From positions 9,112 to 73,111 of IMG/VR virus record IMGVR_UViG_3300048908_000307: a stretch of 64,000 nucleotides of DNA. One strand, 5' to 3'. This stretch comes from a virus. Both the position numbers and the translations under genes were made by a program. Below are positions 6,939 to 52,314 of the stretch, in pieces. The notes beneath the pieces are model-generated. The model saw nothing but the letters and a program-made list of their open reading frames with translations, was not told where the DNA came from and made no database searches. Every line of letters begins with the position of its first letter. The first letter of the stretch is position 1.

Positions 6939-6950
6939 AGTTGTGTGGTC

Positions 6951-9210: not shown

Positions 9211-9212
9211 GG

Positions 9213-12376: not shown

Positions 12377-12377
12377 C

Positions 12378-31356: not shown

Positions 31357-31492
31357 AGCAACCTCAGGAAGGGCAAGGGGGCTCACGGCCCGCACGGTTG
31401 GGTGGGTGCCCTACCTGGGCGGACCTGTGAGCGTCCCGCTCGTCCCTGCTACGGGCCCCGGAGGGTCCGGTGGTGCGTGTGCCCTGCCTGGG

Positions 31493-32257: not shown

Positions 32258-32277
32258 CTGGTCCTCCATGGTTGTGC

Positions 32278-36387: not shown

Positions 36388-36989
36388 TCGCCCTGCCCTC
36401 GCTTCGCGCGCAGCCTGTCGGCGACGTTGGCGTTCTTGGCCCGCATCTCGGCGACCATTTCCTGCAGTTCGATGTCCTGCTGGGTGGTTTCGGTGACGGT
36501 CGCGTCGACCTTGGTAGGCGCGTCGAGGCCGAGGAGTTTGCGCTGTTCGGCGTTGTTCTTGCGGCGGGCGTCTTCGATCCTGACGAGGCGGTCGATCGCC
36601 TGGAGGACGGGTCCGTCGTCTTGGAGGGGTTCGCCGTCGATGGCGATGACGCGGCCGTTGTTGACGGTGATGTGGTGCCGGTCGAGTACCTGCTTGGCGC
36701 GGGCTTCGAGTTCGCCGAGGCGGACCAGCTCGCCTTCGAGGCGTTCGAGGTGGAGGGCCCGGTAGGCGTCGATCTTCGGGTCGACTCGGCGTGCGAGCTC
36801 TTCGCGCAGGAGGTCGCGGGCGGTGGTCCACGGGATGCGGTCGCCGCGAGTGGGTCCGTCGGGGGCGGCGGTGATCGCTTCGATGGCGCGGAAGCTGTGG
36901 CCGTCGAGCTTCAACTGGAAGACGATCGCGGCCTTCTCGGCTTGCTCGGCCGGGTTCTTCCGGTTGTACGGTGCGGGTCCGCCAGCCAT
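36384..36989 (-). CDS. terS: Terminase small subunit (HTH)
   Basis: VFQLKLDGHSFRAI...RKLLGLDAP; overlaps the TerL start. Confidence 0.8.
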   Translation of the reverse strand: MAGGPAPYNRKNPAEQAEKAAIVFQLKLDGHSFRAIEAITAAPDGPTRGDRIPWTTARDLLREELARRVDPKIDAYRALHLERLEGELVRLGELEARAKQVLDRHHITVNNGRVIAIDGEPLQDDGPVLQAIDRLVRIEDARRKNNAEQRKLLGLDAPTKVDATVTETTQQDIELQEMVAEMRAKNANVADRLRAKRGQGE

Positions 36990-37403: not shown

Positions 37404-37610
37404 GTGATGGCTGGGGGATGTCGGGACTGCAACACGTGCACGAAGCCGGGCTTTGCGCGTGCGGGTCAGAACCTGGGTGCCGGATTCGCGCACCTGATGA
37501 CAGCGGGGATTAGCTGGGTGATCAAGCGGGGTGCGATGTCGCACTGCCCGCAGTGCAAGCACCTGCGGTCGAACCACCGCACCCGACGCGACGGCTCGTA
37601 CATCGACTGA
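37404..37610 (+). CDS. Small Cys-rich protein
   Basis: CRDCNTC...CPQCKH..SNH. Confidence 0.65.
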   Translation: MMAGGCRDCNTCTKPGFARAGQNLGAGFAHLMTAGISWVIKRGAMSHCPQCKHLRSNHRTRRDGSYID

Positions 37611-37620
37611 CGGCACGTCG

Positions 37621-37654
37621 AAGGGCCCGCTCCTGACGGTGGGAGCGGGCCCTT
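37621..37654. terminator. Bidirectional hairpin
   Basis: AAGGGCCCGCTCC / GGAGCGGGCCCTT between convergent genes. Confidence 0.75.
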
Positions 37655-37666
37655 TCGGCGTTGCGT

Positions 37667-37864
37667 TCAGCAGTAGTAGTGGTCGGACGGGTCGTCGTAG
37701 TCGCCGTCCCAGTCGCGGTCGACCCAGTAATCGCGGTCGGCGCGCCCGGCGGCGGTCGGCGTCTCATCCCAGTCCCGGCGGGGTTCGGTGAGCGGCTCCG
37801 GCACGTCGACGGCCGGGGCAGGCTCGGACGGGGCCGGGACGGTGGATGGCGGGGGGGCGATCAC
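37667..37864 (-). CDS. Hypothetical Pro/Asp-rich protein
   Basis: GTG start overlaps the upstream stop; DYWVDRDWDGDYDD. Confidence 0.5.
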   Translation of the reverse strand: MIAPPPSTVPAPSEPAPAVDVPEPLTEPRRDWDETPTAAGRADRDYWVDRDWDGDYDDPSDHYYC

Positions 37865-38220
37865 TGCGGGGCTCCGTCGTACCAGTCGGCGGGCAGCTCG
37901 CACAGGTGCCAGTCGGCGGGCAGCGGGGCGAGGGGTTCGACGTCGGCGGAGCAGGGGGCGGCCCAGGTGCGCCGCCAGCTGCGCGCATGCCGGACACGCT
38001 CACCGGCGAGGGGGTTCCAGCAGTAGATCTCGATGGTCGAGATGCGGGTGAAAGAGCGCGGATGCCCGAACTCGTCGGTAAACGCTACGGGGCTACCTGC
38101 CTCCGCCGTCGCCAGGTAGGAGTGGGCCATCTTGTAGGCCTCGCCGGCGGTGGCGTAGCGGCCGATCCGGGCGGAGTTGACGTCCACGATGAACGGCAGG
38201 GTCTCGTCGAGGTTTGGCAC
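37861..38220 (-). CDS. Hypothetical protein
   Basis: GGAG RBS; part of a coupled operon. Confidence 0.65.
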   Translation of the reverse strand: MPNLDETLPFIVDVNSARIGRYATAGEAYKMAHSYLATAEAGSPVAFTDEFGHPRSFTRISTIEIYCWNPLAGERVRHARSWRRTWAAPCSADVEPLAPLPADWHLCELPADWYDGAPQ

Positions 38221-38230
38221 GGCGGGCTCC

Positions 38231-38362
38231 TTACGGGGTGGTGACGGTGACGGCGGGCTGCGGGGTTTGGTAGTGCACGTCGTGCGGGGCGAGGACGCAC
38301 CACGCGAACAGCAGCGACAGGAGCGACATCAGCAGGCACAGGCCAGACGTCTGGGGTTTCAT
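38231..38362 (-). CDS. 43-aa single-TM protein
   Basis: MKPQTSGLCLLMSLLSLLFAWCVLAP; AAGGAG RBS. Confidence 0.55.
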   Translation of the reverse strand: MKPQTSGLCLLMSLLSLLFAWCVLAPHDVHYQTPQPAVTVTTP

Positions 38363-38371
38363 CGCGGCTCC

Positions 38372-38725
38372 TTACGCGGCGAGGCTGAGGATGTGGGCGG
38401 CAATGCGGTGCTTGCAGGGGTGGAGACCCTTGATCCCTGCCGGACACGAGCAGGCGGTGCGGTGGGCCTTGTAGGTGCGCTCGCCGTCGGAGGAGGGAGC
38501 GAGGTAGATGCCGCTACGGAGGGGGATGAGGGCGCCCTGCTCAATGAGCTCTTCGGCCTTGGCGATCTGGTGGGGCTTGTAGATGGCGATGATCTCGGCC
38601 TTGGCGGCGGCCCTGACCTTGCGGGTGCAGGTCGGGCCGTAGCCCGTCGCGACCGACTTGGCGGACCGGAGGGCGCGACCGCAGCGGAGGCAGTTCGAGT
38701 GCTGGTGGGTGGCGGTGGCGTTCAT
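38372..38725 (-). CDS. DUF6011-like zinc motif plus SWIM zinc finger protein
   Basis: CLRCGRALRS..S...GYGPTC and CSCPAG....CKHRIA. Confidence 0.8.
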   Translation of the reverse strand: MNATATHQHSNCLRCGRALRSAKSVATGYGPTCTRKVRAAAKAEIIAIYKPHQIAKAEELIEQGALIPLRSGIYLAPSSDGERTYKAHRTACSCPAGIKGLHPCKHRIAAHILSLAA

Positions 38726-38766
38726 CGGGTCCCCCTTGGTGCTTGCCGGGGAGGTTCCCCCGACTT

Positions 38767-38881
38767 CCTTACGAACCTTACAGTTCAATCCGAGAGGTTC
38801 GCAAGGTTCTTGCAGACCTTACAGATAAGGATCTTCGTAAGGTTGCCGCCTAGCATTCCTTACAGACCTGACGCGTCTTAC
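38767..38881. repeat. Cluster of CCTTAC/GTAAGG half-sites (probable operators)
   Basis: CCTTAC at 38767, 38776, 38817, 38858; GTAAGG at 38837; variants at 38801, 38825, 38876. Confidence 0.6.
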
Positions 38882-38890
38882 ACTCCTCAC

Positions 38891-39118
38891 ATGAAGAAGC
38901 CGCAGAGCGTCCCCGTCGAGCAAGCACGTAAGGAGTTCGCCGACCTCCTGGACGGCAGCCAGCACAAAGGCGAGTTCGCCGAAATCACGCGCAGAGGGAA
39001 GCGCTCCGGCGTCCTCGTACCGCCCGACTGGTATGACGCCGCCATTGCCGCCATCAGCGAAAACCGAGAGCTGAAGCGCCAACTGGCCGAGGTGCAGGCT
39101 GGCGAGGAGTCCACATGA
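38891..39118 (+). CDS. Phd/YefM-family antitoxin-like DNA-binding protein
   Basis: VPVEQARKEFADLLD...EITRRGKRSGVLVPPDWY. Confidence 0.85.
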   Translation: MKKPQSVPVEQARKEFADLLDGSQHKGEFAEITRRGKRSGVLVPPDWYDAAIAAISENRELKRQLAEVQAGEEST

Positions 39119-39435
39119 CGGAAGCGGTTCCAGCTCCCGGCACGACCCGCTACCTCTGCCCGCTCGAATGCGGCTGGCACCACGACGTCCCACCGCCCAG
39201 CGTCGACCGTGCCATCGAACTCGGCGCGACCGCCGACCCGGCTGCCCGGGACATTCACGAGGCGATCAGCTCGGTCGCGACCCGGGCCAGCTTCGCCGAG
39301 GCCGAGCGGACGGAGACCGCGTTGCGGGAGCATCTGGCCACGCACACCACGGAGCAGTTCGTGCGGACCATCCAGAGTTTGCGTGCGAAGGTGGCCCAAC
39401 TACAGGCCGCAATGCCCGAGGCCGCCACCGAGTAG
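39115..39435 (+). CDS. Hypothetical protein (YLCPLECGWHH)
   Basis: ATGA coupling to the Phd-like gene. Confidence 0.65.
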   Translation: MTEAVPAPGTTRYLCPLECGWHHDVPPPSVDRAIELGATADPAARDIHEAISSVATRASFAEAERTETALREHLATHTTEQFVRTIQSLRAKVAQLQAAMPEAATE

Positions 39436-39489
39436 CCCGCTTCCCGCATTCCGCCCCGTCTCCCCCACCGCCCCGGGCACACTGCGATT

Positions 39490-39690
39490 ATGGCGATCCG
39501 GGTGGGCGTACAGGCGGACAGCGAGGACGAATGCGCGGAAGGACTCGCGCAGCTGGTCGACGCCGGGTTCGTGCCCGTGATGCTGCCCCGGCTGCTGACC
39601 GACAACCGGTGGATGGCGCGCGCCGTCCCCGCCCGCACGACAAAGGCCCCGACCGCCGAGGATGGCGGCCGGGGCCCTTCTGCTGGCTGA
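39490..39690 (+). CDS. Hypothetical protein
   Basis: Plausible codon usage; converges on the transfer operon. Confidence 0.55.
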   Translation: MAIRVGVQADSEDECAEGLAQLVDAGFVPVMLPRLLTDNRWMARAVPARTTKAPTAEDGGRGPSAG

Positions 39691-40185
39691 TCAGGCGCGC
39701 GTCTTGTTGTTGGTCTTCACCCACACGCCCTTGTTCTCGGTGTGGGTTTCGCTCCGGTCCTGGTAGACGGGCCCGTTGTAGTGGTTGTGGATCTCGTCCG
39801 GGACAGCCTCTTTGACTCGCTTGACGAGCCGGCTGACGGCGAGGGCGAGGACGGCGGGGGCGCCGAACACGATGCCGACGACGGTCGGGTCGGCATGCCC
39901 GGACACCCAGAGGATGGCGGTGACGGATCCGCCGGCGACTGCGGTGAGGACGCTCCCGGACAGCATCAACGCGCTGGCGTCGGTGGCCTTCTGCGACATC
40001 GGCGGACGGCCAGGCTGGGCGACGGGCGGTGCGCCGCCGATCAGCGGCACGGGTGCGTCGTCGCGGTACGAGGTCGGCGTGCGCATCGCCTCCTCGACGG
40101 CGGCGAGCAGCTGGCGGGCTTGGGTATCGAGGTGGGCCTGCCCGGCCGCGGGGGCGGTGGGCGTCGGCTCGGGCAGGACGGTCAT
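39691..40185 (-). CDS. Spread (Spd)-like two-TM membrane protein
   Basis: Two TM segments then HNHYNGPVYQD..ETH...GVWVKTNN; last gene of the transfer operon. Family call from memory of Streptomyces plasmid genes. Confidence 0.55.
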   Translation of the reverse strand: MTVLPEPTPTAPAAGQAHLDTQARQLLAAVEEAMRTPTSYRDDAPVPLIGGAPPVAQPGRPPMSQKATDASALMLSGSVLTAVAGGSVTAILWVSGHADPTVVGIVFGAPAVLALAVSRLVKRVKEAVPDEIHNHYNGPVYQDRSETHTENKGVWVKTNNKTRA

Positions 40186-40198
40186 GGGGTCGGGTCTC

Positions 40199-40804
40199 CT
40201 AGTCGATTTCACCAGTGCCGGTGCACACGGTGCAGAAGACGCGTTCGGCGTCGTGGATGTGGGTGTCGAGGTCGATGTAGCCGTTGTCGCAGAACGGGCA
40301 GGCGTTGATCGGTTCGGGCGTGTAGTCGGGGTCGGGTTCGTGGCCGCCGGCTTGGAGGCCCCAGGCGGCGCCGATGGCTGCGGCTTTGGCGGCTGCGGCG
40401 GCGTTGCTGACGGGCTTCTTTGCGGCGCGCAGGGCTTTGCGCTTGTGCCGCCTCAGGGCGGCCTTGATCAGCCGCTTCCAGTACACGTCGCGGACGGCCC
40501 GCTTCAGGTCGTCGACGATGACGTCGGGGTGGAGGATCCCGGCGAAGACCGCGCCGCCGACTTCGATCTCGAAGACGTCGTCGTCCTCGGCGCGCTGGCG
40601 GCCGCTGCTCGCGGCCTGGATCTCCTTGAGGATGCCGATGGTGATGAGGGGCTCTTCCCAGCTGTGGGACTGCCAGCAGTTGCCGCGGACGGGCAGTCCG
40701 TCGATGAACCCGGCGCCGTCGAGGGTGTAGGCCTCGGAGCCGCACTCGGGGCACAGGTTGGGGTGCCCGTCGACCGTCATCTGCTGGATCTTCAGGGTGA
40801 GCAT
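40199..40804 (-). CDS. Zinc-finger hypothetical protein
   Basis: CPECG...CWQSH and CPFCDNG...CTVCTGTG. Confidence 0.7.
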   Translation of the reverse strand: MLTLKIQQMTVDGHPNLCPECGSEAYTLDGAGFIDGLPVRGNCWQSHSWEEPLITIGILKEIQAASSGRQRAEDDDVFEIEVGGAVFAGILHPDVIVDDLKRAVRDVYWKRLIKAALRRHKRKALRAAKKPVSNAAAAAKAAAIGAAWGLQAGGHEPDPDYTPEPINACPFCDNGYIDLDTHIHDAERVFCTVCTGTGEID

Positions 40805-40829
40805 CGGACCGGGACCTTCCTCTCTTTTC

Positions 40830-40991
40830 GGTCTGCCTGAGGTCTGCCATGGGGGGTAAACGTGCAGGTGGGGGGTCTGCCAGAGGTCTGCCACGGCCTG
40901 CCGCCCAAAGGGTCTTCCGGCACTGGCTGGCAGACCTGCGGCAGACCTGCGACCTGCGACTATCCGTCCGCTGGCAGACCTGTGTCAGACC
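40830..40991. repeat. clt: clt-like array of 8-bp repeats (candidate TraB recognition sequences)
   Basis: GGTCTGCC at 40830, 40841, 40874, 40885 (variants 40895, 40911); GGCAGACC at 40929, 40940, 40973 (variant 40984); abuts the traB stop codon. Confidence 0.75.
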
Positions 40992-43088
40992 TCAGTTGCG
41001 GACATTCCGGGCTGCGGTGATGTCGGTGAGGAGATAGCCCGGGGTGCGCTCCCCGTCCGCCCCGGTGACCCTCTTGACGTCGAGACCGACGCCGAGCGCC
41101 TCTATCTCGTCCTTGAGGACCTTGCCGACGCGGGTGGTCCAGCCGCGGTCCGTCTCACCGTCCTGCTGCCCGTACTTGGCCGGGGTGGTGGCAGCGAGCG
41201 CGGCGAATACCTCGGCGTTCGTTACTCCTCCGCGGCCGGTCGAACGGGCGAGGATTTCCAGCCGCTCCAGCAAGGTCACGCGGACGATGCGGCCGTTGCC
41301 GCGCTCTCCGCCGGCCGCCGACGAGACGCCGGTCCAGGCCAAGAGCTTGGCCTCGATCGGATCGTGCCACTGGCCAGGCAGGCGGCCCGCGGCCTTCCGC
41401 ATCTCGTAGGCGTCGGCAATGATCGGTGCCTTGTCGTCGTCGTCGATGAAGAACGACCGCAGCGAAACGGTGCCGAGGTCGGGCGACTTGAACCAGAACC
41501 GTCCGGGCTGGTCGAGCGGAATCAGCGACGCGTCGTACCCCTGGCCCGCCATGCCGTCGCCGAGGATCGTGTTGGAGGCGTTCGGAGACTCGGTGTTCAT
41601 GGCGGCGCGCGAGATCAGGTTCTGGCGGAGCCGACCGCGGACAACGTCGACCTCGGGCACCTGGGTTGCCGCCACGAGAAGCACGCCGAGGCCGGCGCCG
41701 ACGGCGCCGATCTGGGCCAGGCTCTCGACGATCTCATCGACGTAGGGGCTCGTCCCCTTGGCCGTGTACGTGGCCAGCTCGTCGATGTCGATGAGCTCGA
41801 TGCCGCCGATGGCCTCGATCAGATCCTCGGTGAGCTTGGCCTTGCCGCGCTCGTCGAGGAAGTCCGCCCGCCGGTCCAGATCCTCCAGGACGGCCCGCAG
41901 GAACAGGGCGAGCCTCTCGGGGTTCTTCTTGACGAACGTGGACAGCAGGCCAGCGAACGCGTTGTGCTCGCCGGACGCCTTGCCGTCGAAGAGGCGCAGG
42001 TTGACCCGCACGTCCTTGGTCGCGCCGAGGTTGAGGTTGGCCAGCAGTACGCCCTTGCCGCGGCGGGTGGCGCCGCCGACGAGCATCATCGTGTCGCGGA
42101 CGCGGACGAGGACGGCGTTGCCTCGCTTCCCGAAGGCGAGCGGGGCGCCGTCATTCCACAGGTCGAGCTTGCCCTTGTGGCCAATAAGCGGGGAGACCTG
42201 GGCACTGGCGAACGGGTCGGCGCTGGCCACCCAGATCTCCAGACGGGACTCGCTACTGCCCGCGCCGCGGCCGACGCTTAGGTCGAGCCAGTCGCTGTGG
42301 ACAGCGAGCGCTGAGGCGATCTCCTTCTTCTTACCGAGGGCGATCATGGCGGGCATGCCGGAGGGCAGGTCGACTGCGAACGCGATGCCGGGCCCTTCGG
42401 TGTGCGGCAGGCCCACGCCGCGGATCTCCGCCGCCCGCTTCTCGGGTACGACGCCGGCCTCGACGAGGACGCGCCGCATGGTCTCCTCGCCCAGGTGGGA
42501 GGTGCGGGTCGGGGCGGACACCGGGGCGACGGCGGGCTCTTCGGGCCGACCGAAGTAGCCGCCGATGACGACGAAGGCCAGCGCAAGCAGCAGCTGAATC
42601 CACCAGCTGCCTATCGTGAATGCAGCCGTGGCCCCGCCAGCGATGATCAGGCCGCTGATGCCGGTGCGGATCCAGTGCCGCTTCTTGTGGGCCTTGAACT
42701 CGGTGCGCCGTACCTCCAGGAGGGCGCGCGCCTTCGACTCGTCCGCGGCCCGCGCGCTGCCCCGCGGCTGCTCCTTGGCCTGGCGCAGCATCAACTTGGC
42801 GGTGGCGATCTGCTGCCGGTAGTCGTCGTGCCGCGCCTCCCACCACCGCAGGCACAGCCGGCGGTAGCCGCGCAGCGACCAGCCGAGGTAGTACGGCGAG
42901 TGGGTGACGTGGAAGCGGATCGCGTCGACCGCGTTGTCGCAGATGTAGACGAGGCGGTGCCGCAGCTGCTCGCCGGACAGGATCCAGGCGGCGCGCGGGC
43001 GGGGCTCGATGGCGAGCGGTGCGGCCTGTGCGGGCTCGTCCTTGACGAGCTTCAGCGGGGTGCGCTCGTCGGTCAGCGGGGTGGCCAT
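40992..43088 (-). CDS. traB: TraB-like FtsK/SpoIIIE DNA translocase
   Basis: Two N-terminal TMs, VGGATRRGKG (Walker A variant), LFDGK, IDIDEL (Walker B), AATQVP, GQGYDAS, C-terminal wHTH-like tail. Confidence 0.88.
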   Translation of the reverse strand: MATPLTDERTPLKLVKDEPAQAAPLAIEPRPRAAWILSGEQLRHRLVYICDNAVDAIRFHVTHSPYYLGWSLRGYRRLCLRWWEARHDDYRQQIATAKLMLRQAKEQPRGSARAADESKARALLEVRRTEFKAHKKRHWIRTGISGLIIAGGATAAFTIGSWWIQLLLALAFVVIGGYFGRPEEPAVAPVSAPTRTSHLGEETMRRVLVEAGVVPEKRAAEIRGVGLPHTEGPGIAFAVDLPSGMPAMIALGKKKEIASALAVHSDWLDLSVGRGAGSSESRLEIWVASADPFASAQVSPLIGHKGKLDLWNDGAPLAFGKRGNAVLVRVRDTMMLVGGATRRGKGVLLANLNLGATKDVRVNLRLFDGKASGEHNAFAGLLSTFVKKNPERLALFLRAVLEDLDRRADFLDERGKAKLTEDLIEAIGGIELIDIDELATYTAKGTSPYVDEIVESLAQIGAVGAGLGVLLVAATQVPEVDVVRGRLRQNLISRAAMNTESPNASNTILGDGMAGQGYDASLIPLDQPGRFWFKSPDLGTVSLRSFFIDDDDKAPIIADAYEMRKAAGRLPGQWHDPIEAKLLAWTGVSSAAGGERGNGRIVRVTLLERLEILARSTGRGGVTNAEVFAALAATTPAKYGQQDGETDRGWTTRVGKVLKDEIEALGVGLDVKRVTGADGERTPGYLLTDITAARNVRN

Positions 43089-43097
43089 GGCGGGGTC

Positions 43098-43571
43098 TCA
43101 GTCCTTCTTCCAGGGGGCGAGTCGTTCAAGACGGGCTTGGGTGCGGGCCATGCGGCTGTAGGGCAGGGTTTGGCCGCTAACGCGGCGGGGTGGGGTCCCG
43201 CCGTTGTTCCGCCGACCGTCTGGCGGCCGGCCGATGCTCGGAGCCATCTGGATCAGTGCGGCCTGCTGGCAGACGACCTCCCAGACCTCTGTCGCGCTGA
43301 TCAATGCGAGGCTCGACGTCTCGGTCCATCCATCGATTCCCAGCAGCTGCTCTCTGGACAGATGGGGCGGTACGTAGAGGCGGAAGCGGATATCGAAGAG
43401 GGCGGCCTGCTCGATCTCGCGAGCGAGCGTCGCCGACTTGGTGTGGAGGCGGCGGTATGGCGTCCAGCCTCGCCGTGTCAACTCTCGGAGCCGGTTTGCG
43501 GAGAGGGTCGTGTAGCCGACCTTGACGGACTGGAAGCCGGGGTGGATGAAGACGTAGGTGATCCCCGTCAT
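43098..43571 (-). CDS. GIY-YIG / T5orf172-like nuclease-domain protein
   Basis: ITYVFIHPGFQSVKVGYT...NRLRELTRRGW...AREIEQ...GWTET. Confidence 0.7.
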   Translation of the reverse strand: MTGITYVFIHPGFQSVKVGYTTLSANRLRELTRRGWTPYRRLHTKSATLAREIEQAALFDIRFRLYVPPHLSREQLLGIDGWTETSSLALISATEVWEVVCQQAALIQMAPSIGRPPDGRRNNGGTPPRRVSGQTLPYSRMARTQARLERLAPWKKD

Positions 43572-44872
43572 TCGGTGGCCTCCCCCGACTTTCGGGCGGC
43601 CGTCTCGCGGCCGATCTGACGCCTGGCCCCTTCGCTGTACGACGGGGTGTCACCGGGGCGACGAACGGGCGGCGTGCCGCCGTTGTTGCGGCGTCCGTCG
43701 GGGGCGTCGGGATCCTTCTTCTGGCGGGGCTTGATTTGGGAACTGATCAGCGCCTGAGGGCCCCAAACGGGGGCGTCGGTGACGGTCCGCATGTGGGCCT
43801 GCGCGGCGCGCGACTGCGCCTCGATTTCGGCGCGGATTCCGACCGTTTTGCAGCCCGTCACGAGGAACCAGGCCTCGGCCCAGATCTGCTCGGTGACGTA
43901 CTGCGAACCGCGGGCTGCGCGGAGGGCGTTGGCCACCTTCCACACGTCATCGTGGTCGGCCTTGCGGTCCGCGTCCTTGCGGGCCTGCTCCTCCTCGACG
44001 GCCTTCTCTCGGGCCGCCTTCTCGGCCGCGGCCTTCGCCTCCGCCCCCGCCTTGGCCTTGTCCGCGCTTGCGCGGGCAGCCGCCTCCGCTTCGGCCTGCT
44101 TCTCGGCTGCGCGCTTCTCCCGCCACGACGGGATGCCGTCGGCTTTCTGGGCGATGCCGTGCTCGTAGGCCATCAGCACGATCGGCCCGCCGAGGGAGGC
44201 GATAGCGCCGATCAGGCCGGCGTTGAAGCCGATCCGCGGATCGGACAGACCCCCGTACATGTTGATGCCGGCGGCGATCACGGCGCCGAGCATGATGCCG
44301 ACGCGGTACGGGGCGACGTCCCGGCGGTGGGCGACCGCCCACGCGGCGCCGAACGCCAACACGAGGGCGAGGCCTTCGAGGAGCGCAGGCGCTGCGATCA
44401 GGAACGGGCGGGCCCGGTCCCAGAAGTGCATGAACTGGACCGGTGCGGCGATGACCAGGCCGACGGCGTAGATGCCGCGGGCACCCCACTTCCACCAGCG
44501 CTCGGTGCGCTGCTGCTCGGCATCCCGCTTCGCCTCGGCAGCCTCCTTCTCGGCGGCAGCCTTGTTCGCCTTCTCCTTCTCGGTGTTGGACTTGGCGGTC
44601 TCGGCGTTCTTCTTCGCGAGGTACGCCTGGTGGTCGACCTTCTCCTTCTCCAAGCGCATGGCGGCGCGGTCGTTGGCGATCCGCTCCTTCTCGGCCTTCT
44701 CGACGGCGAGGATCTTCTCGGCCTCAGCCTTGCCCGCCGCTTCGGTGCGCAGGGCGTCGGCTTCGGCGGCGGCTCGGGTACGGATCGCCTCCGCCTCGGC
44801 CAGCGCGCGCGGATCGAACCGCGGCTCGGGCGAGGCCACGGGTGTGCCGTTGACCTTCTTCTCGACGGACAT
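43568..44872 (-). CDS. Coiled-coil, four-TM transfer/spread protein (DUF2637/SpdB-like)
   Basis: EK/A-rich coiled coil, four TM segments, IASLGGPIVLMAYEH; upstream of traB. Confidence 0.7.
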   Translation of the reverse strand: MSVEKKVNGTPVASPEPRFDPRALAEAEAIRTRAAAEADALRTEAAGKAEAEKILAVEKAEKERIANDRAAMRLEKEKVDHQAYLAKKNAETAKSNTEKEKANKAAAEKEAAEAKRDAEQQRTERWWKWGARGIYAVGLVIAAPVQFMHFWDRARPFLIAAPALLEGLALVLAFGAAWAVAHRRDVAPYRVGIMLGAVIAAGINMYGGLSDPRIGFNAGLIGAIASLGGPIVLMAYEHGIAQKADGIPSWREKRAAEKQAEAEAAARASADKAKAGAEAKAAAEKAAREKAVEEEQARKDADRKADHDDVWKVANALRAARGSQYVTEQIWAEAWFLVTGCKTVGIRAEIEAQSRAAQAHMRTVTDAPVWGPQALISSQIKPRQKKDPDAPDGRRNNGGTPPVRRPGDTPSYSEGARRQIGRETAARKSGEATE

Positions 44873-44925
44873 GGCGGTCACAACCGCTCCCTTCAGGGGT
44901 CAGTGGGTGATCAGGTAGGTGGTCG

Positions 44926-45120
44926 TCAGCGGGGCCGGCGGCGGGTGCTGCGCCAGCCGAACGGGCCGGGCAGGTTGAGCGAGGTGGTGTCGCGGCCGGT
45001 CGAACTTCGGGTGTGCTGCAGCCCGTTCCGGGACCCGACGGTGATCGACCAGCTGCGGCGGTTGATGTTCAACCGGACGCCGGGGAAGATCCGGATGCTC
45101 TTGCGGAACGTGATCGGCAT
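44926..45120 (-). CDS. DUF4236-like protein
   Basis: MPITFRKSIRIFPGVRLNIN..SWSITVG...TGRDTTSLNLPG. Confidence 0.8.
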   Translation of the reverse strand: MPITFRKSIRIFPGVRLNINRRSWSITVGSRNGLQHTRSSTGRDTTSLNLPGPFGWRSTRRRPR

Positions 45121-45329
45121 CAGCGCCTCCCGGCAGGCACAGGAGCGGGCTTGCGGCGAGCGGACGCGATCAGGCCGACGGCTGCGGCGAGCAGCAGCAC
45201 GGCCGGCTGCGCCAGCACGGTGAACGCGCCCGTCGCAGCCAGCTCGACCGGGGTCGCAGCCGCAGGCCACAGGCCCACGACCAGCAGGTACGTTCCGGCG
45301 AGCAGCCAGAGGATGGGGTGACGACGCAT
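45120..45329 (-). CDS. Small two-TM protein
   Basis: ILWLLAGTYLLVVGLWP...VLLLAAAVGLIA. Confidence 0.7.
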   Translation of the reverse strand: MRRHPILWLLAGTYLLVVGLWPAAATPVELAATGAFTVLAQPAVLLLAAAVGLIASARRKPAPVPAGRR

Positions 45330-45431
45330 GACGGCCTCTCTCAAAGGTTGGGGGGATGGGGCTGGCCGGTTCTCCTTGGGCCCCGGGCGAGCCGGGGACC
45401 GCGGGCAGCCGGTCAGCTGCAGGGATTGGGG

Positions 45432-45617
45432 TCAGCCGCCGTAGTGGAGGTCGACGTCGACCTGCTCGGTGGGGCTCTTCCGCACGTGGTTGGTGACGTC
45501 GGTGCGGGCGCGCGCCTGCTCGTATGCGGGGCTCGGGTGGGAGACGGTCCCTGACTCGGTGCGGGTGGCGCCGGTGGCCTTGTCGGTGGCGGTGGCGGTG
45601 TAGCGGAACTTGCCCAT
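45432..45617 (-). CDS. Small hypothetical protein
   Basis: MGKFRYTATATDKATG; GAGG RBS. Confidence 0.6.
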   Translation of the reverse strand: MGKFRYTATATDKATGATRTESGTVSHPSPAYEQARARTDVTNHVRKSPTEQVDVDLHYGG

Positions 45618-45702
45618 GAGGGTTCCTCTCGGTGGGGGTTGGAAGCGCTGGCGCGGTTCCCCTCGACCGGGCCCGTGCGAGACGGGCCCGGCGGGCAGCC
45701 GG

Positions 45703-45870
45703 TCAGCGCTTGGTCTTCGCCCCGAAGAAGCCGTTGCCGGGGGTGGTGGTGTGGCTCTTGTGGATGCGGGCGTCGCTGTCCTTGGTGCGGACGGCCGGGT
45801 CTTGCTGGGTGGTCTCGTGGCCGCACGCCTGGCAGGGCTTGCCGGTCTCGTTCTTGCTGAACAGGCCCAT
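45703..45870 (-). CDS. 55-aa hypothetical protein
   Basis: MGLFSKNETGKPCQACGH; AGGAG RBS; below the track cutoff. Confidence 0.6.
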   Translation of the reverse strand: MGLFSKNETGKPCQACGHETTQQDPAVRTKDSDARIHKSHTTTPGNGFFGAKTKR

Positions 45871-45909
45871 GACGGGCTCCTCTCGGGTTGGGGTGGTCGG
45901 ATCGGTCGG

Positions 45910-46098
45910 TCAGGCCTGGCGGAGCTGGTCTTCGGTGAAGGTGGGCAGGCCGATCGCGAGGTCGAGGTGCGGGTCGCGGATGCCGTCGACCTGCACCCGC
46001 CCGTCACCGGTCGGCCAGGCCTCGCCGGTCCGGCCGACCAGGCCGGGCGCGTCCGGGCTGGACGTGACGGTCACCTGGTCACGCTTCTTGATCGCCAT
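45910..46098 (-). CDS. Small hypothetical protein
   Basis: AAGGAG RBS. Confidence 0.65.
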   Translation of the reverse strand: MAIKKRDQVTVTSSPDAPGLVGRTGEAWPTGDGRVQVDGIRDPHLDLAIGLPTFTEDQLRQA

Positions 46099-46240
46099 GG
46101 GTCTCCTTCGATGCGGTGGACGGGTGGTGGCGCGCGCCCCGGGTTGCGTTCGCGGCTACGTCCGTGGTGACCGAGGCCGGGGCTGGGCCGTGGCGGCGGG
46201 GCCGCGGGGGACGAATCCCACCGCCACGGGGATCAGGTGG

Positions 46241-46498
46241 TCAGGCGTTGCGGCGTCGGGCGGCCTCGTCCATGACGTCCTGGCCGCCGAAGCCGTGCGC
46301 CTCCGCGATACCAGCGAGGCGGTGGCTTTCGACGACGGCCGCCGTATGGGTCAGGTCGCCGTGGTGGTCGCGGCCCTGGGCGTGAAGGCCGTCCGCGATG
46401 GCCCGGCAGGCGTTGGCTTGATCGGCTGCCGCACCGAGGGCGTCGGCGGAGCGGGCGCGGTCGGCGAGCTGGCTCTGCAGCCAGGCAGGCTGGGGCAT
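46241..46498 (-). CDS. Small hypothetical protein
   Basis: AAGGAG RBS. Confidence 0.65.
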   Translation of the reverse strand: MPQPAWLQSQLADRARSADALGAAADQANACRAIADGLHAQGRDHHGDLTHTAAVVESHRLAGIAEAHGFGGQDVMDEAARRRNA

Positions 46499-46509
46499 GA
46501 CGTTCTCCT

Positions 46510-46707
46510 TCAGTCGATTCGAGTGATGTCGCTCGGGGTGGGGTCGAGCACGGTGTTGCCCCGGTTGAGGCGGTGGTGCAGCCGGTCGGCTTTGACGGCG
46601 GACTTCTCGACGGCTTCCTCAGCGCTGTCGGCGCGGGCGCTGTACGTGTACTGGCCTCCGACGCCAGGGCCGGACATTCCGCGACGCGTCACCGTGAAGC
46701 GGCCCAT
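46510..46707 (-). CDS. Small hypothetical protein
   Basis: TGATG coupling. Confidence 0.6.
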   Translation of the reverse strand: MGRFTVTRRGMSGPGVGGQYTYSARADSAEEAVEKSAVKADRLHHRLNRGNTVLDPTPSDITRID

Positions 46708-46925
46708 CAGGCGGCAGCCGGGTAGTCGAAGCCGTCGAGTTCGGCGGCCAGCGGCGGCTCGTCCGGGTGACGCAGGTCGTACTCCTCGGCGAGCTTCTTG
46801 ACGCGTCGCATGGCGAGCTCGTCGGCGGCGTCAAGGGCGATCTCGTAGCGGGCCTGCAGGTCCAGACGGGCACGCTGCGCGGCCTCGTAGGCATCCAGGT
46901 CGGCGGCGATCAGGTAAAGCGGCAT
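46707..46925 (-). CDS. Small hypothetical protein
   Basis: GAGG RBS. Confidence 0.65.
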   Translation of the reverse strand: MPLYLIAADLDAYEAAQRARLDLQARYEIALDAADELAMRRVKKLAEEYDLRHPDEPPLAAELDGFDYPAAA

Positions 46926-47032
46926 GGCAGTGGTTCCTCACTGGTCAGGTGGGTCTGGGATGGGGGTGGAAAGCCGCGCTGGCGGAGGCCGCGGGGGATT
47001 TGGGCTTCCCCGCCAGCGCGGCGGTCTTGGGG

Positions 47033-47146
47033 TCAGCCCCGCTGCTGGGCGAGGAGCTGGCGTGCAGCCTCGGCAGCCAACGCGGCGGCTGTCGCCTCGG
47101 CGATGCGCTGCTGGGCGAGAGCGTCAGCGGCTTCCTGCTCGGTCAC
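47033..47146 (-). CDS. 37-aa Ala/Gln-rich helical peptide
   Basis: MTEQEAADALAQQRIAEA; GGAGG RBS; overlapping start. Confidence 0.5.
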   Translation of the reverse strand: MTEQEAADALAQQRIAEATAAALAAEAARQLLAQQRG

Positions 47147-47313
47147 GACTTCACCTCCTCGCCCGAAGCGATGACGAGGAACCGGTCGTTGCGGATGTCC
47201 TGCACGACGGTCGCCGGGATGCCGTTGTCGCGGAACGCCTTCGCCTGCTCCTCCGCCGGCCAGCTGCCGCGCGGGTGGCCGGCCTGGGTGGAGGCGAGGA
47301 TCTTCTGCGGCAT
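47143..47313 (-). CDS. Small hypothetical protein
   Basis: MPQKILASTQAGHPRGSWPAEEQA; coupled. Confidence 0.6.
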   Translation of the reverse strand: MPQKILASTQAGHPRGSWPAEEQAKAFRDNGIPATVVQDIRNDRFLVIASGEEVKS

Positions 47314-47633
47314 CACGACACCTCGACCAGGTGCAGCATTCCGGCGGCGGCCAGCTGGCAGCGGCACATCGCCATCTCGTCCTGCAGGCGCAGGCAGCCG
47401 TCGTAATCGGCAGCAGCCGACAGGCGGCTACAGCGAGCCGACGCCCACCGGTGACGGGTCAGGAGGTCGGCAACCTGCAGGGAGACGCCGGTACAGGTCA
47501 CGCCGTTGATGACAGCGGACTCACCCGGAGCCAGAGCAGCCAGGCGGCGCTCCAGGCTTAGGAGCGCGTCGACGGCCGGCTGCGGGAGCGGAGCGGTGGG
47601 GGCGGTAGCGGGGGTCGGGGTTGCGGTGCTCAT
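47313..47633 (-). CDS. Hypothetical protein
   Basis: GGAGG RBS; follows the Xis-like gene. Confidence 0.6.
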   Translation of the reverse strand: MSTATPTPATAPTAPLPQPAVDALLSLERRLAALAPGESAVINGVTCTGVSLQVADLLTRHRWASARCSRLSAAADYDGCLRLQDEMAMCRCQLAAAGMLHLVEVS

Positions 47634-47635
47634 GA

Positions 47636-47866
47636 TCACGCCACCTCCGAGGTGGGCTTGTCGGAAGAGTTGCGGAGCGCCATGACGACATCCCGCGAGA
47701 TTCGGATCGCGCCCCCGCGTCGGGAGTCGCCTTCGGCTCGCGGCTGTCCGTAGCGGATGGCCGGCAGATCGCCGTTGTCGATCCAGCGGTAGACCGTCGG
47801 CTTGGAGATCCGCAGCAGCACTGCGGTCTCTTGCACGGTGAGCAGGTCTTGAGCCGCAGGCAGCAT
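47636..47866 (-). CDS. Excisionase-like HTH (HTH_17) protein, first gene of the transfer operon
   Basis: LLTVQETAVLLRISKPTVYRWIDNGDLPAIR...IRIS. Confidence 0.85.
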   Translation of the reverse strand: MLPAAQDLLTVQETAVLLRISKPTVYRWIDNGDLPAIRYGQPRAEGDSRRGGAIRISRDVVMALRNSSDKPTSEVA

Positions 47867-48053
47867 CTAGCTCTCCAATCCAGGAGTTGGGGGTTGGGCT
47901 GACATGACCAACTGTGGCAGGTCTCTTGAGAGGTTGCAATGTTCTCGCCCGATCGAAGCGGTCTCGTATGCCCCGCCGCCCCTCGTGAACTGGGCTTATG
48001 GTTGGGAAATTGATGGATGACTCAAGAGACGTTGCGAACTGGAGGAGTCGCGA

Positions 48054-48587
48054 GTGACGGAAGCGCAGTGGAGCGGGTCATCGACGCCCTATCTAGGCAG
48101 TGGCCAGGGAGACGCGTGGGGAAAGGAAGCCGCAGACCAGGGGCGCACCGGCAGCCAGCGGATCCTGAAGGCGGGGCCGATCGCGGCAAGCGGGGAGGTC
48201 GCCCGGCGACTCGGACTGCCCGAGGGCGCGGCGGTCATCGAGCGGCAGCGCCTGATCCTGCTGGACGGCCGGCCCGTCGAGTTGGCGATCTCCTACTGGC
48301 CAGCCAGCTGGGCGGCCGAGACCGCACTCGCGCAGCCCGGCAGGATCCGCGGCGGCGCCGTATCGCTACTCGTGGAACTTGGCTACACGCCCGGCCGCGT
48401 CGACGAAGACGTCACCACGCGACCGCCCACCAGCGAGGAGTTCCAGACCCTGAACCTTGCCACTGGCGAGTGGATCCTCTCGATGGCCCGCACGATCACC
48501 ACGCCTGGCGGTCGCCCCTACGAGGTGTCAGTCATGGTCAGCCCCGGCCGCATTGGACGGCTCCACTACTCAATGAAGGTCGACTGA
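48054..48587 (+). CDS. Stand-alone UTRA domain protein (no HTH)
   Basis: VARRLGLPEGAAVIERQRLILLDGRPVELAISYWP...GRPYEVS. Confidence 0.85.
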   Translation: MTEAQWSGSSTPYLGSGQGDAWGKEAADQGRTGSQRILKAGPIAASGEVARRLGLPEGAAVIERQRLILLDGRPVELAISYWPASWAAETALAQPGRIRGGAVSLLVELGYTPGRVDEDVTTRPPTSEEFQTLNLATGEWILSMARTITTPGGRPYEVSVMVSPGRIGRLHYSMKVD

Positions 48588-48588
48588 C

Positions 48589-49350
48589 ATGCCAGAACAG
48601 CCCGAAGAAGAGACCGTCTGGCCCGTCCAGGACCAGATCGCCGCCTACCTCCGCGACGGAATCCTCAACGGCGACTTCCTGCCCGACAAGGCCCTCCCGT
48701 CAAGCCGCAAGCTGCATGACCAGTTCGGCGCCGCGGCGCAGACCATCAAGAACGCGATGGAAATCCTGGAGCGAGAGGGCCTCGTCTACACCCGCAGAGG
48801 CGCCGGGGTCTTCGCCCGCGGGCACCGCCAGCGCACCATGACGCCGGCCGAGTACAAGAATCCGCCGACGGATGGCGGCAAGTACCAGTGGATCGCCGCG
48901 GCCGAACGGAAGGGTATGACGGGGAGGTCGGAACTCCTCGACGTCGAGGAAGTCGTTCCGCCGCGCCTGGTCCGCAATGCGTTCGGACTCGGCGACGATG
49001 GGACCGCGATCTTGCGCCGCCAGGTGATGTACCTCGACGACGAGCCTTGCGAGTTGGTGGAGGTCTACTTCCCGCTCGACTTGGCCAGGGGAACGCCGAT
49101 CGCCGAGCGTCGGCGCATCAAGGGTGGGGCGGGGCGAGTGCTGGCCGAGGCGGGGCTCCCGTCTCTCCGGTGCGTTGACAAGGTGGCTGCCCGGTGGCCG
49201 ACTCCGCAGCAGCAGAAGGCGCTGAAGATGCCGACGAAGCTGCCCGTGCTGCGCCAGTTCCGCGTGACGTACAGCGTGGACGATCGCCCCATCCAGGCGG
49301 AGTTCATGATCAAGGCGGGTCATCTGTACGAGCTGGAGTATGAGTTCTGA
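48589..49350 (+). CDS. GntR/HutC-family regulator (TraR/KorSA-like)
   Basis: QIAAYLRDGILNGDF....LPS...FG....GLVYTRRGAGVF plus UTRA; divergent from the transfer operon. Confidence 0.88.
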   Translation: MPEQPEEETVWPVQDQIAAYLRDGILNGDFLPDKALPSSRKLHDQFGAAAQTIKNAMEILEREGLVYTRRGAGVFARGHRQRTMTPAEYKNPPTDGGKYQWIAAAERKGMTGRSELLDVEEVVPPRLVRNAFGLGDDGTAILRRQVMYLDDEPCELVEVYFPLDLARGTPIAERRRIKGGAGRVLAEAGLPSLRCVDKVAARWPTPQQQKALKMPTKLPVLRQFRVTYSVDDRPIQAEFMIKAGHLYELEYEF

Positions 49351-49391: not shown

Positions 49392-49493
49392 TCGTTGCGT
49401 CTGGATGCAAACGAGAGACTTGCGAACCTCTCAACAAACCTCTTACAGTCGCTCCCGAGAGTGGCTCACGCCACACGCTCAGTTAGGAGCGGC

Positions 49494-50051
49494 ATGCCCG
49501 AAACTCCCGAACGAACCGCGCTCTACCGATACTTCGACGCCAACGACGAGCTGCTCTACGTCGGGATCTCGATCGACCCAGACGGCCGGCTGAAGGCCCA
49601 CCGCGACAACCACGAGCCGTGGGTCGGTGAGGCCACCAAGCGCACCGACGAATGGCACGACTCCCGCTCGCTCGCCCTCAGGGCCGAGGCGGAGGTGATC
49701 AAGGCGGAGCGCCCGCGCTACAACGTGAAGCTCAACTACGACGACGCGCCCTTCGATCCCGCCTCGTGGCCCGAGATCGCTGACTTCCACAAGGTGCCCG
49801 GCATTGCGGAACTGATGCGCACCGAGATCACCAGCGGACGGTGGGCGCCGGGCCAGCGCATCCCATCGCTCCGCACCCTGGGAGAGGCGGCGGGCGCAAG
49901 CATCCGAATCGTCAGCAAGGCCTCGACTCAGCTGCAAAACGAAGGGCTTCTCGACTTGCAGCCGGGGCACGGCGTCTTCGTCGCCCGTCCCCAGGAGCCT
50001 CGCCCGAAGCTGCCGCACAACTTCTTCTGGGAGCTCGGCTTCCCCGGATAA
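49494..50051 (+). CDS. GIY-YIG nuclease domain fused to a GntR wHTH
   Basis: TALYRYFD...LLYVGIS..P..R...H...AEAEVIKAERPRYN, then EITSGRWAPGQRIPS...GHGVFV. Confidence 0.85.
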   Translation: MPETPERTALYRYFDANDELLYVGISIDPDGRLKAHRDNHEPWVGEATKRTDEWHDSRSLALRAEAEVIKAERPRYNVKLNYDDAPFDPASWPEIADFHKVPGIAELMRTEITSGRWAPGQRIPSLRTLGEAAGASIRIVSKASTQLQNEGLLDLQPGHGVFVARPQEPRPKLPHNFFWELGFPG

Positions 50052-51861: not shown

Positions 51862-52314
51862 ATGGCAACCGTGCGGGATGTCGCGGCTTACATACTGGCG
51901 AAGGAAGCGCCGATGTCCGCCATGAAGCTGCAGAAGCTCTGCTACTTCGCCTACGGGTACCACCTCGCATGGGAGGACCGGCAGCTGTTCCCGGAACGCT
52001 TCGAAGCGTGGGCGAACGGGCCGGTCGTGAAGGAGCTGTACGCCCGGCATCGCGGCCGGTTCAACCTGGACCGCGGCGACATTGCCGGCGACCCGACGGC
52101 CCTGAGTGACGACGAGCGCGACTCGGTCAACGTGGTTCTCGAGAGCTTCCGCGCCTTCGACGCCCACGAGCTGTCGGCAATGACGCATCAGCCGGGCCCG
52201 TGGCTGGACGCCCGGACGCGGGCCGGCGCGACGGATCTGCAGCGCAGCAACGAAGAGCTGCGGGACGAGGAGATCGCCGACTACTTCGGCGCGCTTGTGG
52301 GCCGCGAGGACTGA
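51862..52314 (+). CDS. Panacea-domain (DUF4065/SocA-like) antitoxin
   Basis: DVAAYIL...MSAMKLQKLCYFAYGYHL...LF...FEAWANGPVV...LSAMTH...PW. Confidence 0.92.
   Translation: MATVRDVAAYILAKEAPMSAMKLQKLCYFAYGYHLAWEDRQLFPERFEAWANGPVVKELYARHRGRFNLDRGDIAGDPTALSDDERDSVNVVLESFRAFDAHELSAMTHQPGPWLDARTRAGATDLQRSNEELRDEEIADYFGALVGRED

Follow-up and report, generated by a model that had tools for sequence, protein, structure and literature searches.

A putative Streptomyces plasmid-type DNA transfer module with its own clt-like array in a clade of temperate tailed phages

The stretch of DNA analyzed here (the window, 64,000 nucleotides) comprises bases 9112-73111 of a single 75,488-bp contig, the IMG/VR virus record IMGVR_UViG_3300048908_000307, which is described as 'linear' with a CheckV completeness of 88%. 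On its gene content, the genome is that of a temperate siphovirus-type tailed phage. Between its terminase gene and its DnaB region lies a minus-strand operon resembling the transfer loci of Streptomyces plasmids, with a TraB-type FtsK/SpoIIIE pump, a clt-like repeat array and candidate spd-like genes, the regulator genes being divergent on the plus strand. It appears reasonably probable that this double-stranded DNA transfer module of Streptomyces plasmid type lets the phage spread also without virions. Comparison with related loci indicates that, beyond the single case of pZL12, the whole clade of integrating phages to which the window belongs has conserved an analogous cassette that includes a recognition site of its own. 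The members of this clade come from Streptomyces genomes and from soil and root metagenomes.

The operon opens with a gene for a helix-turn-helix (HTH) protein of the HTH_17 family, followed by seven small open reading frames (ORFs), genes for a 437-amino-acid (aa) and a 157-aa protein, the gene for the 698-aa translocase (traB), the array, and genes for a Cys-rich protein and a protein with two transmembrane (TM) helices (Table 1). An initial annotation of this DNA had described an operon with an Xis-like HTH, small ORFs, a coiled-coil TM protein, a 698-aa ATPase, a repeat array and a divergent GntR gene, and all of these were found at the positions it gave. The small ORFs are present as seven and not as about ten. 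The two-TM protein that had been placed at the array is there as well, as the second gene after it, the first being that of the Cys-rich protein, which has no TM helix. The operon is divergent from a GntR/HutC regulator as had been described, with the difference that a UTRA-only ORF lies in between and the GntR gene is second.

The TraB-type pump

The Walker A (G-A-T-R-R-G-K-G; G339..G344-K345-G346) and Walker B (D436-E437) motifs of the pump were invariant in 34 homologs. An AlphaFold model (pLDDT 74.5) consisted of N-terminal helices with a TM segment, a RecA-like motor (residues 200-570) and a C-terminal domain (606-694). The hydrophobic stretch ahead of the motor (approximately residues 143-180, Kyte-Doolittle 2.06) forms a long helix in this model, which is of low confidence there. 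The top Foldseek matches of the pump were FtsK motor domains and the conjugation coupling protein TcpA of pCW3 (E of approximately 1e-15). The ratio of nonsynonymous to synonymous substitution rates (dN/dS) of TraB against four relatives was 0.19-0.35; by these measures the predicted TraB is under purifying selection and its motor is intact.

Identity with chromosomal FtsK was ruled out. The pump scored 19.5 bits on the NCBIfam FtsK equivalog, for which the cut-off is 1566, and a profile built from its clade gave 410-515 bits for Streptomyces plasmid proteins versus 36 bits for a Kitasatospora chromosomal FtsK, which is also a distant outgroup in the tree described below. On the profile scores and the tree, the ATPase groups with plasmid TraB and not with chromosomal FtsK, as its first assignment had implied. 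A tblastn search with the pump found 54 plasmid records, 49 of them from Streptomyces (best E 4e-105). The same type of search found no similar protein at E <= 1e-5 among 50,697 INPHARED phage records, and megablast of the region 39.0-50.5 kb against these records gave no match, with no isolated phage being close.

The C-terminal domain was modeled separately (AF2, residues 589-698, pLDDT 85.8) and showed the order helix-strand-helix-helix-hairpin-helix (H-b-H-H-bb-H). Its structural neighbors are nearly all winged-helix DNA-binding domains; FtsK-gamma was not recovered as a specific structural match, the matches being of the generic winged-helix type.

The repeat array as a candidate clt

The first unit of the array overlaps the stop codon of traB. 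Four copies of GGTCTGCC/GGTCTGAC lie beside the stop codon in the direction of traB and four distal copies are inverted, the two copies of each pair being 11 bp apart. Seven of the eight exact copies of GGTCTGCC in the 64-kb window are inside these 162 bp, the number expected over the whole window being 5.2, and allowing one mismatch gives the eight units of the array. The probability that the copies cluster by chance is negligible.

To compare arrays, the 200 nt following the traB stop codon were taken from 41 related loci and the window. The offsets of the units were fixed in approximately 25 loci (3, 14, 47 and 58 forward; 102, 113, 146 and 157 inverted) and the spacers were conserved (CGCAGGTC... 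and ...CACCTGCA...). The 8-mer itself is lineage-specific, with GGTCTGCC, GGTCGGAC, GGTTGGAC, CATCGGAC, CCCCTGAC, GCCCTGAC, ACCCTGCC, CCGTGATG and others being found, and in each array all eight copies have changed together while the spacers have not. This concerted change between constant spacers suggests a site which is read by a sequence-specific protein, rather than neutral drift.

Two sources describe the clt of Streptomyces plasmids as 8-bp repeats that are read by the matching TraB through helix 3 of the winged helix-turn-helix at its C-terminus (wHTH; PMC4447253, PMC3583192). In pWTY27 the 688-aa TraA binds a clt formed by 16 bp within the gene and the 159 bp next to it, which contains direct repeats of 7 bp as well as inverted repeats (PMC3583192). 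In the window, the most probable candidate for reading the array is the pump's C-terminal domain. The window TraB and that of an S. mirabilis prophage (P0002, 91% identical overall) share 90-100% along most of their length and 62% in columns 641-680, and their arrays differ, with GGTCTGCC in the window versus CATCGGAC in the prophage. Four loci (L009, L010, L011 and L030) have motors 94-96% identical to that of the window, a different 8-mer and a C-terminal domain of only 63-69% identity, and three others (L031, L032 and L039) have motors of 76-84% identity, the same 8-mer as the window and a C-terminal identity of 86-92%. Helix 3 and the wing vary in sequence together with the repeat word: the wing motif KRVxGxDGERTPG occurs with GGTCTGCC, KKVTGPDG(E/Q)RTLG with GGTCGGAC or CATCGGAC, and KRVPxxDGKRxQG with CCCTGAC. 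The partial Spearman correlation over 25 loci was 0.51 for the repeat and the C-terminus given the motor and 0.22 for the reverse. The array had already been proposed to be a clt; with its architecture kept among the relatives and its word following the C-terminal domain of TraB, it behaves as the cognate clt of the pump. The plasmids H1 and H2 show the same array architecture after traB as the window.

[quoted passage not shown] Plasmid traB/traR pairs are Kil-Kor systems whose transfer retards growth (PMC4447253), and PMC11571958 describes mobilization of chromosomal DNA by AICE transfer. One relative of the module carries a KilB gene, and in PHROGs the category given to FtsK-like proteins of phages is 'moron, auxiliary metabolic gene and host takeover'. 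Against this, a private clt on the phage genome that co-varies with the DNA-binding domain of the pump argues that the phage's own DNA is the substrate, and eight copies changing in concert with their spacers kept are hard to explain without DNA recognition. A host-directed use is therefore considered unlikely.

Two further features of the array should be noted. An inverted pair, GCAGGTC ... GACCTGC, is conserved in the clt spacers of phage and plasmid versions alike (window 40830-40991; L003:1852-2080; L004:11004-11230), which suggests a second, invariant element that might be a structure or the site of another protein. The sole sigma-70-like promoter match in 38.5-50.5 kb is also located within the array (40959-40988, minus strand) and faces the two downstream genes, which TraB binding at the array could regulate as well.

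Association of the module with phage genomes

A maximum-likelihood tree of 46 pumps placed the window in a clade of 25 rows (support 98/100, stem length 0.98) which contains no plasmid row. Eighteen of these rows were checked and are phage-linked, lying beside capsid or portal genes; of the seven unchecked rows, a chromosomal locus accounts for one, the other six being either IMG/VR contigs or a 4-kb fragment. The plasmid pumps fall outside this clade, two phage-linked pumps (L017 and L025) lie within its plasmid-rich sister group, and chromosomal FtsK forms a remote outgroup. On this tree the TraB clade of the window is phage-specific.

The window itself encodes the gene set of a temperate tailed phage (Caudoviricetes, siphovirus-like), with terminase, portal, HK97 capsid, tail tube, tape measure, lysis genes and integrase. 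It is called integrative here on account of the phrog_1 tyrosine integrase and of its provirus relatives, rather than from observed att junctions. A chromosomal locus of S. mirabilis (L009) has a TraB of 91% and a portal of 99% identity to those of the window, and a 72-kb metagenome contig, L010, has a TraB of 84% and a portal of 47% identity. In both, a few small genes come after the cassette, and terS, terL, portal and minor capsid genes follow them; the same layout beside terS, terL and portal was seen in L009, L010, L032 and others. The relatives all come from Streptomyces or Kitasatospora.

Within IMG/VR, 17 virus contigs have a TraB 54-86% identical to that of the window. The ten records examined comprised eight proviruses and two with direct terminal repeats (CheckV 86-100%); nine of the ten contained an HK97 capsid gene, and an SPP1-type portal was found in four of the five searched. 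A search of five related virus records with phrog_38 gave no terminase match, which represents a failure of sensitivity, as the capsid and portal families were found in them. A portal-based search of IMG/VR for relatives returned only three short fragments. In all of five Streptomyces genomes an HK97 capsid match is located on the strand of traB and 14-25 kb downstream of it, being the only such match in the genome in four and one of two in the fifth; that it is on the same contig as traB was matched by number in three genomes and inferred in two. Co-occurrence of traB with capsid genes, for which a survey had been suggested, was seen in both sets.

The likely source sample provides independently built Logan contigs which tile 33.5-53.4 kb, the eight longest pieces having a depth of 9.6-12.5. 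One of them (37607-40669) shows no differences and bridges from the phage genes before the terminase into the cassette. Contigs of two root metagenomes also tile the module and its phage flanks. The apparent 'joints' in the Logan contig data have sides of 20-23 nt and were taken as spurious. A misassembly or a nested separate element, either of which had been named as something that would undo the reading of the module, is unlikely given that the layout recurs in independent assemblies, that the TraB clade is phage-specific and that contigs tile the flanks.

The module might still be a passenger or decaying remnant, that is, an AICE or plasmid cassette inserted in or recombined with a prophage and without function for the phage, or a separate nested element. 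Phage genomes are mosaic and the identities of TraB and portal are only loosely coupled, as in L010, while the position of L017 and L025 in the plasmid-rich sister group suggests repeated exchange. However, no integrase, Rep or direct-repeat boundary belonging to the module was found. All of its genes are intact, with the dN/dS range and invariant Walker motifs given above, and the clade has diversified within phages, with at least 18 verified loci and a long, supported stem. The tiling of the module and its flanks by contigs of the two root metagenomes and the likely source, one of which bridges the junction, also speaks against a passenger, which is considered very unlikely. The putative transfer module is best described as a native, conserved transcription unit of a temperate siphovirus.

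No Prim-Pol, DUF3631/RepAM, ParA (CbiA/ParA) or ParB (ParB_N) was detected in the record, the DUF3631 search being one without a positive control. Neither RepSA nor a relaxase appeared in Pfam scans of the larger genes, including all ORFs of the module, in which no models aimed at RepSA or relaxase were used. The initial annotation had seen no rolling-circle Rep or relaxase, and this stands as far as these families and scans reach.

Gene content of the module and its regulators

The HTH_17 gene also opens the operon of the relative L007. The seven small ORFs have a high third-position GC and are spd-like candidates; the last of them (45120-45344) has two TM helices by hydropathy. The 437-aa protein is SpdB2-like on the basis of its architecture, its position and a weak similarity, namely a BLASTP match (E 1e-6 over 76 aa) to the DUF2637 protein ahead of TraB on plasmid NZ_CP108495. 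Pfam gave no DUF2637 match for it at E < 0.01, and its membership of an Atlas cluster named 'putative SpdB2 protein' (score 0.86) serves as a lead only. Most relatives have a homolog of this protein upstream of traB. The flanking genes of the pump match the DUF2637/SpdB2-TraB synteny of plasmids, in agreement with the TraB-system layout that had been recognized from the outset.

The 157-aa protein occupies the same position in many relatives (49-77% identity), and homologs of the Cys-rich protein are found at its position in most relatives (59-85% identity). The true start of the latter is at approximately 40804, reading MLTLKIQQ as in the relatives. Pfam, NCBIfam and PHROGs gave nothing usable for the 157-, 201- and 437-aa proteins. 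It should also be noted that the 157-aa and 437-aa proteins share a near-identical C-terminal motif, PDGRRNNGGTPP, followed by an R-rich stretch, possibly a peptide by which both dock to the pump or the cell wall.

The divergent regulator with wHTH and UTRA domains resembles KorA of pIJ101 (BLASTP E 2e-11, 27% identity) and is a candidate for a TraR/KorA-like repressor of the transfer operon. It has the features of a GntR/HutC-type Kor or TraR protein, with wHTH and UTRA domains and a location divergent from the spd/tra operon, the UTRA-only gene lying in between. The half-sites in the control region between the two units would serve as operators. The pair of UTRA-only and GntR/UTRA genes is kept in the relative L006 (L006:4365-5661), and the UTRA-only protein could be a dominant-negative or anti-repressor partner of a Kor-type repressor. 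The regulator genes are immediately followed by one whose product joins a GIY-YIG nuclease domain to a GntR-type wHTH, an unusual architecture. In the close relatives L009 (4270-5315) and L010 (4533-5527) two NUDIX genes replace the GntR genes. The gene set of pSAM2 includes pif and KorSA, and the NUDIX genes at the regulator position recall pif. A KilB (PF27072) gene was found among the small ORFs of another relative (L007:5550-6960). The NUDIX and KilB genes are further plasmid or AICE hallmarks in phage-borne cassettes.

The gene neighborhood has to be weighed where the module is considered as a device for segregation or spore loading. A pump acting at clt would then save extrachromosomal phage DNA, in a carrier state or as replicating circles, at sporulation or vegetative septa by moving it into prespores or daughter compartments, the gain being vertical inheritance and dispersal with spores. 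The closest solved relatives of the pump motor are the FtsK motors, which clear DNA from septa. FtsK reads the FtsK orienting polar sequences (KOPS), a loading site of oriented 8-mers, which the array resembles; opposed half-arrays would permit loading in both directions, and the record yielded no partition genes. The nearest relatives and the neighborhood of the pump (DUF2637/SpdB2-like protein, Spd-like ORFs, GntR), however, are those of plasmid transfer and spread loci and not of chromosomal segregation genes, and the KilB and NUDIX genes of the relatives are typical of transfer loci. An integrating phage, moreover, needs no segregation device in lysogeny. Segregation is accordingly rated as quite unlikely to be the function of the module.

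Comparison with known systems

The Streptomyces plasmids pSVH1, pWTY27 and pIJ101 have one membrane-anchored FtsK-like pump with a C-terminal wHTH, for which the C-terminal domain of the window pump is a candidate counterpart, and repeated words of 7-9 bp at the 3' end of its gene (PMC3583192, PMC4447253). Their transfer loci resemble that of the window also in their other genes: a four-TM coiled-coil SpdB2 is encoded upstream, corresponding to the SpdB2-like candidate, the spd genes are small and coupled in translation, and the GntR repressor gene is divergent. The plasmids compared also include CP075612, NZ_CP108495 and pZL1 (NC_023316), and direct sequence relatives of the pump occur on plasmids together with the synteny and the array architecture of the window. 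The gene order on those plasmids is that of the window: a protein of the DUF2637 (SpdB2) type comes first, then one or two small ORFs and the pump, and two small genes lie beyond a gap of approximately 200 nt. The window differs from these plasmids in that the replicon is a tailed phage of 75-85 kb and in that the phage pumps form a clade of their own. Its array is a symmetric arrangement of four and four inverted units, in contrast to the direct repeats of pSVH1 (PMC4447253) and the mixed direct and inverted repeats of pIJ101, pJV1 and pWTY27 (PMC3583192).

With AICEs such as pSAM2 the element has in common a tyrosine integrase, a TraB-type pump, Spd-like genes and a GntR (KorSA-like) regulator. 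AICEs are elements of 9-24 kb with Int, Rep (RepSA, RepAM or Prim-Pol) and Tra and without virion genes (PMC3218068, PMC2440964). The present element, in contrast, exceeds 75 kb, encodes a full virion and has its integrase approximately 40 kb from traB; Int and Tra are present, RepAM and Prim-Pol were not found, and RepSA was not searched for.

The closest precedent is pZL12, also known as phage ZL12 (GQ919031; Zhong et al. 2010, J Bacteriol 192:3747, as cited in PMC4487206 and PMC3583192), a Streptomyces phage that forms virions and whose tra module matches that of the window in gene order and in its location upstream of the terminase. On its map, a GntR gene is divergent from six small ORFs, after which come genes for a membrane protein, a protein of 766 aa, an FtsK-like protein and a two-TM protein of approximately 170 aa, and then the packaging and capsid genes. 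The product pZL12.70c, encoded directly downstream of the FtsK-like tra gene, is an ortholog of the 173-aa two-TM protein (44.6% identity, E 9e-37) and its sole match among all phage records. The initial annotation had cited pZL12 as a partial precedent; the precedent stands, and is closer than was stated, given the position of the module upstream of the terminase and the orthologous two-TM gene. Orthology was rejected for pZL12.73c and the 437-aa protein and for pZL12.71c and the TraB profile. Conjugal transfer of pZL12 requires the major tra gene and two neighboring genes (PMC3583192), and it is maintained as a circular plasmid with ParA/ParB (PMC4487206). Phage conjugation itself has in pZL12 its one experimental precedent.

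Apart from the extra 766-aa gene ahead of its pump, pZL12 differs from the window in its portal and structural genes, which are unrelated; the window portal has no Streptomyces plasmid match. Whereas pZL12 is a ParAB plasmid, the record of the window has a tyrosine integrase, provirus relatives and no detected ParA/ParB, being 88% complete. With virion genes present and plasmid maintenance genes not found, it does not correspond to a phage-plasmid of the pZL12 type. Single SpdB2 homologs are known from phiC31 and VWB, where they have been proposed to help in spreading phage DNA in the mycelium (PMC4447253), and FtsK-like genes of the isolated Streptomyces phages Jaresh and AndoPrime have been listed as noteworthy (PMC13587820). 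Unlike in the window, these are isolated genes without a recognized clt or complete cassette. A literature search, made without most subscription journals, found no description of a complete TraB-clt-Spd cassette in integrating phages or of co-variation between clt and wHTH.

Proposed role of the module

In the proposed mechanism, relief of the GntR-type repressor would allow TraB hexamers to load on the clt of the circular phage genome, whether excised or replicating. Acting with the putative SpdB2-like pore protein and the small Spd-like products, TraB would then move the phage's double-stranded DNA through contacts between hyphae and through septal cross-walls, by which the phage would reach neighboring compartments or mycelia without virions, receptors or lysis. 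The genome would afterwards integrate by means of the tyrosine integrase or replicate. The main use may be inter-mycelial transfer (conjugation) or intramycelial spread following infection or induction. It is speculated that the opposed half-arrays let the pump load in either orientation.

A number of observations weigh against virion-free spread by this module. Similarity of the pump to a proven TraB is weak: pIJ101 Tra, the only experimentally proven TraB compared with it, aligned over the motor only (hhalign probability 67%, E 5e-5, 25% identity). The C-terminal domain matches winged-helix folds weakly (Foldseek E >= 0.1, VIA Z 5.0-5.6), and as its coding region adjoins the array, their joint inheritance may partly reflect linkage and not selection. 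The small ORFs belong to no recognizable family in Pfam, NCBIfam or PHROGs, and pIJ101 SpdB shows no similarity to the 437-aa protein. The pump of pZL12 is not orthologous to that of the window, hhalign aligning the P-loop only, and pZL12 lacks an 8-mer array after its pump. No RNA run contains the sequence. With the record 88% complete, the absence of Rep and Par genes is also not proven.

A wider reading is put forward more tentatively, as possible rather than probable. For a large and monophyletic lineage of temperate Streptomyces phages, a private TraB-clt-Spd system may open a second way to infect that needs no capsid, with phage double-stranded DNA passing between cells through the walls and cross-walls of hyphae, comparable to the action of the movement proteins of plant viruses, and bypassing receptors and surface defenses. 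Fast and concerted turnover of the 8-mer and its reader would keep the pump private from co-resident phages, plasmids and AICEs, and an integrated clt would mobilize the host chromosome.

Phages are assumed to move between cells as particles. If virion-free spread is real, a mycelial phage that pumps its naked genome escapes receptor loss, surface defenses and lysis, and the line between prophage, AICE and plasmid blurs. The co-variation of 8-mer and winged helix would offer a natural specificity series for how FtsK-like pumps choose DNA, and a chromosomal clt in lysogens could add to the large-scale chromosome transfer seen in Streptomyces. The question is testable in cultured lysogens such as that carrying the S. 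mirabilis prophage.

Other features of the genome

The gene map of the window was drawn from third-position GC, the GC content being 63-73%. DNA of the record was found near-complete in one root metagenome and partially in two others. The terminase ORF probably includes extra upstream sequence, because the relatives L009 and L010 have gene calls for terS and a terL of approximately 525 aa. The integrase has a full length of 428 aa (L057:132-1418), its gene starting 680 nt to the left of the window edge. A 138-nt piece of the 3' end of one gene occurs at both ends of the contig (C1:61-198, 75351-75488), 99.3% identical and with downstream sequences that differ. A duplicated gene is probably where the assembly broke, leaving the contig unclosed, which fits the CheckV estimate.

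Table 1. Predicted features of the window, with coordinates counted from its first base.
Feature	Position	Strand	Basis
Tyrosine integrase, C-terminal part in window	1-606	+	phrog_1, E 1.2e-30 on full-length protein
Endolysin	8323-9246		PHROG match
Tail proteins, tail tube, capsid, portal, terminase	14.5-36.8 kb	-	Gene map
Tape measure protein, 1906 aa	20648-26368	-	
HK97-type major capsid protein	30295-31395	-	Pfam Phage_capsid
Scaffold and minor capsid protein	within 30295-34799	-	Pfam Phage_scaffold, Phage_min_cap2
SPP1-type portal	33282-34799	-	Pfam SPP1_portal
Terminase large subunit	34807-36831	-	phrog_38, E 3e-56 over residues 172-667
Two-TM protein, 173 aa, last module gene	39691-40212	-	Hydropathy; phrog_19266 E 2.7e-62
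Cys-rich (zinc-ribbon-like) protein, 201 aa, no TM helix, first gene after array	40199-40804	-	Translation
clt-like array, 162 bp	40830-40991		Eight 8-mer units, starts at traB stop
TraB-type FtsK/SpoIIIE double-stranded DNA translocase, 698 aa	40992-43088	-	Pfam PF01580 24.6 bits, just above the cut-off of 24 bits; phrog_1358 'FtsK/SpoIIIE-like protein' E 1.4e-31
157-aa protein between SpdB2-like gene and traB	43098-43571	-	Translation
SpdB2-like membrane protein, 437 aa	43568-44881	-	N-terminal coiled coil, 3-4 TM helices, second coiled coil, C-terminal domain (hydropathy)
Seven small ORFs, 55-85 aa	47143-47367, 46707-46925, 46510-46707, 46241-46498, 45910-46098, 45703-45870, 45120-45344	-	High third-position GC
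HTH_17 (MerR/excisionase-like) DNA-binding protein, first operon gene	47636-47866	-	Pfam HTH_17 E 1.6e-14; PHROG excisionase/HTH families
Divergent control region, three (C)AGGTCT-type half-sites	47867-48053		Read from sequence
UTRA-only protein, 177 aa, no HTH, first gene of divergent unit	48054-48587	+	Pfam UTRA 2e-21
GntR/HutC-type regulator, wHTH and UTRA	48589-49350	+	Pfam GntR 7e-15, UTRA 5e-15; phrog_10724 1.2e-37
GIY-YIG nuclease domain fused to GntR-type wHTH	49395-50051	+	Pfam GIY-YIG 5e-07, GntR 1e-11; PHROG endonuclease matches
DnaB	58397-60109	-	

Several minor features were also observed. An intein with a LAGLIDADG endonuclease lies within the tape measure protein (Pfam Intein_splicing, LAGLIDADG_3). 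At 5921-7673, a collagen-repeat protein is encoded beside a DNA-invertase-type small serine recombinase (phrog_125, E 9.5e-65), and this may represent an invertible tail-fiber switch. Genes for a sugar epimerase/dehydratase and a GT-B glycosyltransferase lie on the plus strand at 11405-14239, between the tail and lysis genes, and may form a module for glycosylation of the virion or host. A gene for a SocA/Panacea-domain antitoxin was found at 51862-52314, between the regulator unit and the early operon.

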